Virus record (IMG/VR): IMGVR_UViG_3300043409_000956
Location: 29,093 to 93,092 of that record
DNA from: a virus
Length of the DNA stretch: 64,000 nt
Reading direction: 5' to 3' (one strand)
The notes beneath the pieces were generated by a model. The model searched no databases. It was not told where the DNA came from and saw nothing but the letters and a program-made list of their open reading frames with translations. This document shows positions 59,516 through 62,021 of the stretch, one piece after another. Position 1 is the stretch's first letter. Each line of letters starts with the position of its first letter. Position numbers and translations under genes: made by a program.

Positions 59516-61246
59516 TTATTTCTTACGAGCCTTTGCTCTACCAGCCTTCATGTTGGCCAACCAGTGTGCCATGCGTTGCTTTTCACCTGATGAATTCTTT
59601 GCTGTCTTGCGTAATGAACTTACACTGGCCTTGGTATTGACACCTGAGCGTTTGGCCAATCCTTTACGTCCGGGATTTTTACCATCAGCAAAGTTTTCGT
59701 TTAATCCAAATCCATCCCGAACAGCATTCATTAGTTCGCTCACACTGGCTTCTGTGGTTGGAAGTGTATCTTGTTCGCCAATATGCGGGTCGCCTTCTTC
59801 AACAGTACCCAACGCATAAGTGAACATACTGTCACCTTCATTGTCAATGATAACAATATAGTATTCATCAGTCATTGCGCCACGAGTCGTGAATATAAAA
59901 GATCCATCGTCTTTACGCTGGCCTTTCCACCCCATGGCTCTCATTGCGCTGTTGATTTTATTCACAACTTCTGGCCAAGGTAACATATTGCCTAATGAGA
60001 AGCCTTCCGCCACACCCGGTGTATGTGTGGGTTGTGTCAATTGAGAGAACTCACGCCTGGCATGTTGTAGGGCATCAACTGCATGAGTTGATGACATTGC
60101 CTTCTTTCTTTTGTCAGTCTTTTTCCATATGACCGCGGCTTGACCATTGTCAATACTTTGTATTTGACCTATCTGCCATGGATTGTCTGGATGTCGTACC
60201 CAGTCGCCGCGATAGACGCCTTCCGTCATGCCTTGTAGATTCTTCTTGGCATATGATAGTTGTATTTTAGGAATCTGTAAGTTTAATCCTGGTGGTGGCC
60301 AGGTGGCCATCTGTGGGTGTGGCGCCGGGTCCAATGGTGGTGGTTCTCCGGGTCTTGGTTGATTACTTGCTTTCCATTGCTTCTCTGCTGTAAGATAATC
60401 TTGATACTGCTGGTTATATGCTTGTTGGGCCTGAGTAAATATGGCCTGATATGCGTCCATTACTTGAATTATATAATTAAAGTAAGTGGCACTCACTTTG
60501 AATTCTTGTGGATTTGCCGTTGCCCATTTGTTTATATCATCTCTGAAATTGTCGATTATTCCATTTGCGTACGATGTAACAAAAGTTTCTCTCTCGCCTG
60601 GCGGTTCATAGTATATGCTTTTTTGTAAATGTCCTAAATAACCTTGTAATCGTGCAGGAATACTTTCCAAGTAACCCTCAAGGCTACCATCATGTTGTCC
60701 ACCTTGGGTGGCCCCTGTTCCGTGCTGTGTTGAAAAATCTTTGTAATACTCATCATTCTGTATACCAATAACTGAGTTAGTTCCGGCGACACCGTGAAAC
60801 CCCACATTCATTTGTTTAAAGGCTGTGTCTATGGCCGTACCGCGGTCGCCTTTGTAGTATTGGGCTTTAATGCCATTGGGAACACTACTACCTTCGGGTG
60901 CCAATACAATAGCACGACCCAAGTTTATTTCGCCTTCGTTGTTGAATCTATACCAGGTGTCTTCTGCTCTAGCACCGGCGGCTTGATCTCTTGGCATCTC
61001 TGCAGGATTTGCAATGATCACATACTTACCGGGAAATTTACCCATATTATGATCGCCCACCATGCTATTAACAGTGAAGTGTAGGGTGTTTCTCTGACTA
61101 TGACCGTTAAACCTAGCGATTGCAGTCAATGATCCATCACCATTGGCCTGTATGTTATCCAACCCATCAACAACTCTGACTAATCTATAACCACCGGCTG
61201 GTGCTTCAGTAAGAGTAGATTCTACAATGATGTCTTTGATTTTCAC
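59516..61246 (-). CDS. multi-module probable head polyprotein with GMTEG/GVAEG/LNE linkers
   Basis: MKIKDIIVE leader; linkers at 60219-60235 and 60003-60019; basic C-terminal NFADGK module. Confidence 0.75.
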   Translation of the reverse strand: MKIKDIIVESTLTEAPAGGYRLVRVVDGLDNIQANGDGSLTAIARFNGHSQRNTLHFTVNSMVGDHNMGKFPGKYVIIANPAEMPRDQAAGARAEDTWYRFNNEGEINLGRAIVLAPEGSSVPNGIKAQYYKGDRGTAIDTAFKQMNVGFHGVAGTNSVIGIQNDEYYKDFSTQHGTGATQGGQHDGSLEGYLESIPARLQGYLGHLQKSIYYEPPGERETFVTSYANGIIDNFRDDINKWATANPQEFKVSATYFNYIIQVMDAYQAIFTQAQQAYNQQYQDYLTAEKQWKASNQPRPGEPPPLDPAPHPQMATWPPPGLNLQIPKIQLSYAKKNLQGMTEGVYRGDWVRHPDNPWQIGQIQSIDNGQAAVIWKKTDKRKKAMSSTHAVDALQHARREFSQLTQPTHTPGVAEGFSLGNMLPWPEVVNKINSAMRAMGWKGQRKDDGSFIFTTRGAMTDEYYIVIIDNEGDSMFTYALGTVEEGDPHIGEQDTLPTTEASVSELMNAVRDGFGLNENFADGKNPGRKGLAKRSGVNTKASVSSLRKTAKNSSGEKQRMAHWLANMKAGRAKARKK

Positions 61247-62021
61247 TGCTGACTCCTTTTGGCCACATCCTGTTTGCTGATTTCTTCTATGTCCTTGTCT
61301 GCTACTATTTGCACAGGAATACTTTTTGTATCCGACAATTTATAGGCCCAGAATCTATGATGTCCATCTAACACTTGATATCCATTTTTGTATTTGCGAA
61401 CCAACAATGGAGGAAGTTTGTCACCCTTCTTTAAGCCAGCAATAATCTTTTCAACATTGGCTCGGCTCTTAGGTTGTTGCATCTTTGAATCTGGCTCGAA
61501 CCCCACTAGCCTATTGGCAGATATGTTGACTACCGGCAAGCTATCAAACCCTGCGTCATCTACTTCTGCCCCAAAATAGCCAGGGTCTGTGTATAATTTG
61601 ATCTTGCCTTCTGTGAGTTTCTTAGCAGGAACCCAGGCCATGATATCAGTTCGATTCAATAGTTCTGCCGCGGCCCAGGCTCTATGTGCCCCATCCAGTA
61701 TGTGTCCTTCAGCATCCGCCACAACAGGTTTTTTATCTACATGGTGTTGACTATACTCTCTAGCATGGTCAACATCAACAAACATGGCTCGACCATATGG
61801 ATCATTGCCTTCGTCTTCATCATTGGGTACATGTAGACTAGACAATGGCACACGCTTTAATTCATATTGCGGGTTACGCATTATTAATCGTTTTAAGAAC
61901 CCGCCACCTTGTTGGTCTTTGGGATGAATGCCACCCACATAATCCCATATCTGCTCTGCGCTGGCCATGTTTGAGGATTCTACAATGATGTCTTTGATTT
62001 TCACTGCTGAATCCTTTTGGC
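61218..62021 (-). repeat. 46-bp direct repeat (61218-61263 and 61976-62021, 1 mismatch) flanking a whole gene
   Basis: Contains RBS, GTGA stop/start overlap and KIKDIIVES codons. Confidence 0.9.
61243..62004 (-). CDS. tandem ParB/sulfiredoxin-like domain protein
   Basis: ILDGAHRAWAA and VLDGHHRFWAY, separated by LTEG. Confidence 0.8.
   Translation of the reverse strand: MKIKDIIVESSNMASAEQIWDYVGGIHPKDQQGGGFLKRLIMRNPQYELKRVPLSSLHVPNDEDEGNDPYGRAMFVDVDHAREYSQHHVDKKPVVADAEGHILDGAHRAWAAAELLNRTDIMAWVPAKKLTEGKIKLYTDPGYFGAEVDDAGFDSLPVVNISANRLVGFEPDSKMQQPKSRANVEKIIAGLKKGDKLPPLLVRKYKNGYQVLDGHHRFWAYKLSDTKSIPVQIVADKDIEEISKQDVAKRSQQ

Follow-up and report, generated by a model that had tools for sequence, protein, structure and literature searches.

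A duplicated 46-nt junction in a probable head-cargo gene cluster of an uncultured jumbo phage

The minus strand at the end of IMG/VR virus record IMGVR_UViG_3300043409_000956 carries three tightly packed genes, termed gene 3, the ParB gene (253 aa) and gene 1, and a 46-nt direct repeat, designated junction J, lies at either end of the ParB gene. The stretch analyzed, referred to as the window, is the last 64 kb of this 93,092-bp record, which has a CheckV completeness of 26%. J is interpreted as a duplicated inter-gene junction in a probable head-cargo cluster, with copies identical by descent, at which one protein would end and the next would be restarted and re-addressed, and which would act as a split form of the linkers that join modules in related polyproteins; a probability of approximately 0.65 is assigned to this reading. 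The contribution of this locus is the interchange between a leader peptide and an in-frame linker, together with the footprint of a fresh duplication.

The repeat and its two copies

A repeat search of the window places the copies at 61218-61263 (J1, minus strand, between the ParB gene and gene 1) and at 61976-62021 (J2, minus strand, between gene 3 and the ParB gene), with 758 bp from start to start and 45 of 46 positions identical (98%). Over 35 bp the two copies, which point the same way, are perfectly identical, and the identity is lost sharply at either edge of the repeat. When read on the minus strand, each copy contains GCC AAA AGG A(G/T)T CAG CAG TGA, which encodes the tail AKR(S/I)QQ and the stop of the upstream gene; the sole mismatch (C/A on the plus strand at 61253/62011) exchanges Ser in J1 for Ile in J2. 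A Shine-Dalgarno (SD) sequence, AAGGAG in J1 and AAGGAT in J2, is located 6 nt upstream of a GTG start that overlaps the stop codon (GTGA), and the following codons read K I K D I I V E S, such that the repeat comprises the leader codons MKIKDIIVE and the TC of the Ser codon. The 29-nt coding part has exactly two matches in the window with up to 3 mismatches allowed, no match in 100 dinucleotide shuffles, and no third copy in the whole 93,092-bp record. The repeat search and the minus-strand reading bear out the original prediction, which described two 46-bp copies with one mismatch, 758 bp apart, each supplying the tail and stop of one gene and the ribosome-binding site, start and leader of the next; this description is right in every detail.

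The peptide MKIKDIIVE is found at the head of at least 10 unrelated IMG/VR proteins, and its DNA varies. Each of 19 other gene starts encoding MKIKDIIVE differs from the window at 2 to 6 of 8 silent sites, whereas the two window copies agree at all silent sites, share the rare GTG start and have 16 of 17 upstream bases in common. The two copies are therefore identical by descent. The retention of the peptide while its silent sites vary indicates that selection acts on the peptide.

JGI metagenome contigs were scanned for a 31-nt core of the junction, and the exact junction is present in just two other contigs, with J occurring once in the part recovered from each. The first (L176, 98.2% identical over 1.4 kb) contains J1, in the order DUF6934 module, QGVTEG^, ParB2 and KQDVAKRSQQ-stop (^ marks a module boundary here and below), followed by the leader and the N-terminal module of gene 1. 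The second (L177, 90.2% identical over 2 kb) contains J2, with gene 3 ending in AVAFAKRIQQ-stop and followed by the leader and the first residues of ParB1. The longest run of identity between the window and L177 is 94 nt (61964-62057) and covers J2, which makes the junction the best-conserved stretch of this comparison. Additionally, a 3.1-kb Logan contig from a third study (X3) crosses the 61218 copy, and a 253-aa protein that is 94% identical and has the same start and tail is encoded on a 186-kb contig (P0016). An assembly artefact, which the original prediction had named as its risk, would require that contigs were misjoined at the repeated leader, and the short-read unitigs of the probable source run do stop at both copies. 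However, each junction recurs with unique flanks on both sides in the assemblies of other samples (L176, L177 and X3), and the protein on the 186-kb contig has the same two ends, which leaves a misjoin extremely improbable. Each junction taken separately is thus confirmed as real DNA; the evidence for both on one molecule comes from the IMG/VR contig and from P0016-type proteins.

A hairpin is predicted in the RNA of J2 (61975-62014, minus strand), in which the SD sequence and GTG start (GGAUUCAGCAGUGA) pair with leader codons 7-10 (UCAUUGUAGAAUCC). The J2 fold over 91 nt has an energy of -25.4 kcal/mol with a z score of -2.8, and a 57-nt fragment has a z score of -4.7. In the homologous region of another contig, L050 (about 5995-6040), 14 of 14 pairs are retained, with one double compensatory change and one mismatch repaired. 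The G-for-T change in J1 improves the SD sequence and weakens the stem. The predicted fold suggests translational coupling in which the hairpin would be opened by the ribosome, and the hairpin may act as a coupling switch. A search of Rfam gave no match at E values up to 1.

Polyprotein linkers and the leader peptide

The ParB gene (61243-62004, minus strand) encodes the leader (residues 1-9), ParB1 (10-120), the linker KKLTEG (121-126), ParB2 (127-243) and a truncated linker, KQDVA (244-248), which continues into the J1 tail KRSQQ; the limits of the modules were set from relatives. ParB2 reaches 23.2 bits with Pfam ParB_N, which is under the cut-off of 26.3, and matches the ParB-like family of PHROG at 1.7e-15. 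PF02195 is also precomputed for the protein cluster of the ParB gene, and ParB2 contains the DGHHR form of the conserved DGxHR box, so that both the profile match and the box of the ParB/Srx fold are present. ParB1 resembles ParB2 in its DGAHR box only (E 0.002) and is a probable but unproven second ParB-like domain.

In 47 viral contigs, giant polyproteins contain ParB2 (residues 127-243) internally, with QGVAEG on either side, and 120 shorter relatives usually continue as EEISKQ(G/D)VAE^NFADG into a conserved basic tail. In the window, ParB2 ends in EEISKQDVA and is followed by KRSQQ-stop at exactly the point where more than 100 relatives have KQ(G/D)VAE^. The DNA reads GAT GTG GC^C AAA AGG in the window (^ here marks the edge of the repeat) versus GGT GTG GCG GAA GGC in relatives, and this alignment places the beginning of the 61218 copy inside a linker that is cut after GTGGC. 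The original prediction regarded QDVAK at this position as a decayed linker of the GVAEG system; the relation to GVAEG-type linkers is supported by the more than 100 relatives, but the linker is truncated rather than decayed, and QDVAE itself is a normal variant. Two other ParB2 proteins (P0100 and P0112) end in EEISKQGVAK-stop, which resembles a further case of a linker cut behind VA, possibly one converted independently to a stop and restart.

The same modules are found behind leaders and behind in-frame linkers. The N-terminal module of gene 1 (S-x-L-N/T-E^APAGGYRLV) stands at the gene start behind a leader in the window and in P0002-4, L050, P0011 and P0012, and inside polyproteins behind KKQDVTE^S (P0005, P0008), SALTE^S (P0006, P0010) or KQGVAE^S (P0007). 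P0002 and P0003 match gene 1 at 98% and carry its leader. The HCH module follows the leader MRASEFVSE^ in L169 and NVNE^ in the window, and the NFADG basic tail follows FITE^ (L099), LNE^ (window) or DVAE^ (L003, L039). In every case, the module begins right after a Glu residue, as expected if one protease cuts both leader and linker. The two elements differ in their DNA: among 74 distinct GVAEG contexts, 41 share an identical 15-mer, and the Ala codon is GCG in 67 of the 74 compared with a GCG background of 7%. The linker is thus codon-locked DNA and the leader is not; since the leader is conserved at the peptide level and not at the DNA level, it is ill suited to be a general handle for recombination, and only freshly duplicated junctions such as these two offer 35 bp of perfect homology. 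A full-text literature search for GVAEG returned no relevant paper.

In the proposed mechanism, J would end the upstream frame (KRxQQ-TGA) and restart translation at once, with the SD sequence in the last codons, the GTG over the stop and the J2 hairpin hiding both the SD sequence and the start. The next protein would then carry the leader MKIKDIIVE^S, which would dock it in the prohead core, after which a gp21-type protease would cut behind the Glu residue. As a split linker, J would allow the same modules to be made as one polyprotein or as coupled separate genes, each tagged with an address. A more specific form of this idea is put forward tentatively and is less likely true than false: approximately 40 bases (KRxQQ-stop, SD, GTG and MKIKDIIV) would constitute a portable split linker between the Ala and Glu codons of a VA^E-S site, turning an in-frame joint into a stop and restart with a capsid address and a coupling hairpin. 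A lineage could then switch the same cargo modules in both directions between polyproteins and separate genes, and duplicated copies of J could subsequently move whole genes.

The leader core motif [KR]x[KR][DE][IFLVM][IVLFT]xE was counted in 1.26 Mb of related loci that had not been fetched by the leader pattern. It has 35 distinct open-frame occurrences, 30 of which directly follow ATG, GTG or TTG, and 26 of these 30 are no more than 30 codons from an upstream stop. Variants include MRAKEFITE, MKIRELIVE and MRSKEFIIE, and the family consensus is MRAKEFITE. The same short peptide is thus present at the very start of unrelated proteins, and it has a gp21-type end ([LIV]xE; IVE^S in J) with the mature module directly behind it. 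In phage T4, the internal proteins IPI, IPII and IPIII and Alt carry a capsid-targeting sequence that is removed by the prohead protease gp21 (PMC9026906, PMC3012670, PMC8442874); the ten residues at its N-terminus are enough to direct packaging, and cleavage is controlled by residues 8 and 10 (PMC9026906). The leader appears to match these tags in every feature that can be read from sequence: it is a short N-terminal peptide common to unrelated, variable and non-essential proteins, it has a hydrophobic-x-Glu end, MRAKEFITE resembles MKTYQEFIAE, and gp21-type proteases exist in the lineage. In contrast to the T4 tag, the leader has nine residues of a different sequence, is swappable with in-frame polyprotein linkers, is known from its sequence, and precedes cargo that includes enzymes and ParB-like domains. 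The best reading of these likenesses is that the leader is a T4-like head-address tag, which we infer by analogy.

The family-B DNA polymerase is 51% identical to that of Sinorhizobium phage Phosso and 48% identical to that of Agrobacterium phage Atu_ph07, with jumbo phages such as CBB and GAP32 as the next best matches. Because of these polymerase matches, the source is placed in a distant T4-superfamily group as an uncultured freshwater jumbo phage. Among five large related contigs that share modules, four have a prohead protease of the gp21 family (PF03420), and a Gp23-type capsid protein is present in all four related contigs tested (G005 was outside this search). The related capsid proteins have an [LI]xE^[SAN] motif upstream of the conserved core. 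This is about where T4 gp23 is cut, after LTE.

Two other known systems are similar in part. Polyvalent proteins (Iyer et al. 2017, PMC5512222) are also long chains of unrelated effector domains, including ParB-like domains, with extensive domain shuffling, and they are presumed to be carried in the capsid and to be delivered along with the DNA. They are, however, thought to be processed by an embedded zincin-like peptidase, whereas here the codon-locked xxE linker fits a site of the head protease and the ParB modules match ParB_N; a general Pfam scan of the three cluster proteins found no zincin-like metallopeptidase domain, although no search aimed at one was made. The ejection proteins of phiKZ and SPN3US are likewise numerous head-internal proteins with pro-peptides that are cut at xxE by a gp21-related protease, but the motif cut there is S/A/G-x-E, and neither a shared leader nor a swappable linker has been described for them (PMC5694885, PMC7411985).

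Origin of the junctions and alternative explanations

The tail of gene 3 (AVAFAKRIQQ) is colinear, as far as TTT GCC AAA, with the natural C-terminus of the HCH module in L166-168 (ATEFAKQIVNE^NF). A second decayed linker in the gene 3 tail was considered and is ruled out by this alignment. A gene 1 homologue on the contig L050 (93% identical) begins with the leader MKVREIITE^S and is preceded by a different gene; the non-coding stretch upstream of its start matches J2 and approximately 10 bases of the left flank at about 82%, by our own count from the alignment. The order HCH tail-J-gene 1 is thus probably the ancestral one, and the join of ParB2 to J looks derived. We infer that this join was made by illegitimate or microhomology exchange in the linker. 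A single recombination would have put a J-bearing segment beside ParB2; the left breakpoint of this segment is in the terminal linker of ParB2, behind GTGGC, and its right edge coincides with the E^S module boundary. A tail of the form KQD(V/M)AKRSQQ is common to five protein clusters with different N-terminal parts, which indicates that the ParB2-J join is inherited and not brand new. The modules are also arranged in other ways among relatives: ParB2, J and gene 1 occur without ParB1 in L176; ParB1 and ParB2 are fused in frame via KQGMAEG^ to the two C-terminal modules of gene 1 in P0017; an extra module lies between the ParB halves in P0018, P0019 and the X3 contig; ParB2 is missing from P0025; and P0007 joins ParB1 to gene 1 in frame.

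The original prediction proposed that recombination between the two copies would delete or amplify the ParB gene. Presence/absence variation, the lack of which would have spoken against that proposal, is abundant at the locus, but no variant of this kind was found, and all breakpoints seen are at in-frame linkers or xxE boundaries. The power of this comparison is limited in that all runs were searched as Logan contigs, whose unitigs break at the 35-nt exact repeat, and the uncovered parts in X2 and X4 are uninformative. Loss or amplification between copies is thus mechanistically plausible and unobserved. The broader view that J is a recombination handle, with the ParB gene as a cassette gained, lost or amplified by homologous exchange between copies, possibly via a circle, draws on the 35 bp of perfect, directly oriented identity, on the variable presence of ParB modules and on the T4-type phages, in which open reading frames flanked by short, conserved regulatory repeats are shuffled and short PeSL repeats give rise to deletions and mini-circles (PMC2839356). 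The likeness to the PeSL cassettes and internal-protein loci of these phages (Arbiol et al. 2010, PMC2839356, citing Repoila et al. 1994) consists of a short conserved expression signal and of direct repeats flanking a variable reading frame, which make clean loss, gain or circle formation possible. A PeSL, however, is an intergenic promoter with a terminator stem-loop, whereas J has neither, lies across two coding regions and contains translation signals together with a protein tag; no intergenic space is present in J, the only promoter-like match (9 of 12) is inside the leader codons, and no terminator was found. Indels with breakpoints in the repeats were likewise not seen among the related genomes, in which the variants break at linkers (with limited power). 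Since exact junctions occur in just two other metagenome contigs with one J each, and since it is the linker DNA rather than the leader DNA that is conserved between genes, we consider the handle view unlikely. The layout of flanking repeats and the tag combine known kinds of element, namely PeSL cassettes and T4 internal-protein tags.

The identity of the copies could also have arisen by gene conversion, in which two older, diverged leader start regions of neighboring genes were homogenized over 46 bp with neither insertion nor duplication. Leader start regions of this family at approximately 78% identity are known (L050), which makes a diverged partner possible, and when the window is compared with L177, no stretch is better conserved than the junction. 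The tract would, however, have to start inside a truncated linker with no homology on its 5' side, and the tail shared by five clusters makes the join old and inherited rather than a recent local conversion, which renders this explanation quite improbable. A different question is whether the leader is a capsid address. It might instead serve translation efficiency at the first codons, another localization, or as a pro-peptide that keeps enzymes inactive until it is removed by a protease; packaging is argued here from likeness of sequence, and the surroundings of the cluster among metabolic and replication genes are in accord with such roles. The retention of the peptide despite silent variation favors a peptide over an RNA function, the leader has the same xxE^ end as the linkers and the likely maturation site of the capsid protein, and the EFIxE core of MRAKEFITE is similar to T4 MKTYQEFIAE (PMC8442874). 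A role other than addressing is accordingly held to be unlikely, although less so than gene conversion.

Several observations weigh against the interpretation of J as a duplicated, re-addressing junction of a head-cargo cluster. The cluster is not beside structural genes, and neither the window nor L177 contains the T4 late promoter TATAAATA. No prohead protease gene is present on the contig of the window, which says little at 26% completeness. A complete 296-kb relative (G001, with loci L180-L194) has ParB2-type polyproteins, a gp21-type protease and a Gp23-type capsid protein and essentially no leader genes; the leader is therefore not universal in the group, and this relative is no proxy for the present phage in a genome-wide leader count. 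Support for the hairpin comes from three independent sequences, and an SD-hiding hairpin as a general trait of leader genes is rejected (mean z of -0.1 over 54 starts). The history given above is also not unique, as P0017 and L176 allow other orders of events.

The capsid-targeting sequence of T4 is the classic route by which proteins to be injected are loaded into a phage head, and the shuffling of accessory genes at short repeated signals is established for T4-type phages; the present locus, in itself a single local duplication, would unite both in uncultured giant phages of lakes, with the 46-bp duplicate as a fresh footprint of the change from linker to junction. If cleavage and packaging are true, the locus would show by what means a phage assembles and rearranges a large set of injected proteins, among them ParB-like domains, and it would offer a compact natural design of tag and junction for loading foreign proteins into phage heads.

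Other features of the cluster and its surroundings

Gene 1 (59516-61246, minus strand; 576 aa) consists of the leader, STLTE^, an N-terminal module of about 330 aa, QGMTEG, a DUF3553-like module, PGVAEG (with canonical linker DNA at 60016), an acidic module, LNE^ and a basic tail beginning NFADGKNPGRKG. The C-terminal basic module, NFADGKNPGRKGLAKRSG...RAKARKK (window 59516-59700, minus strand), is approximately 90% conserved over at least 200 viral loci and closes most such polyproteins. It is absent from gene 3 and the ParB gene, such that the cluster as a whole is reminiscent of a single chain closed by one tail. Gene 3 (62001-63998, minus strand, with its 5' end past the end of the contig) encodes three DUF6934-like modules and the HCH module and ends in AVAFAKRIQQ. 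The three DUF6934-like modules are diverged, and each opens with EAFDQP behind an xxE site. In L177, the full-length homologue is 799 aa long and has its own leader, MRIDDVITE^S, at its start, behind which the N-terminal module recalls an acetyltransferase by eye only. A Pfam scan of the three cluster proteins gave DUF3553, ParB_N and DUF6934 and no other family at E 0.01, and a tblastn search with gene 1 and the ParB gene against 50,697 cultured-phage records gave no match.

The cluster adjoins genes for a sugar-nucleotide epimerase and a DegT-like aminotransferase (window 57446-59514, plus strand). In the flanks of L177 and L050, it is beside genes that are carbamoyltransferase-like by eye only. 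None of these neighbors is a structural gene. A second cargo locus is present at window 6856-7344 (plus strand), where a 162-aa gene has the leader-like start MKPTDFIVE^H. Near it, at 7891-10512 (plus strand), an 873-aa polyprotein contains QGMAEG, KGMAED and three canonical GGTGTGGCGGAAGG linkers at 9454, 9769 and 9979.

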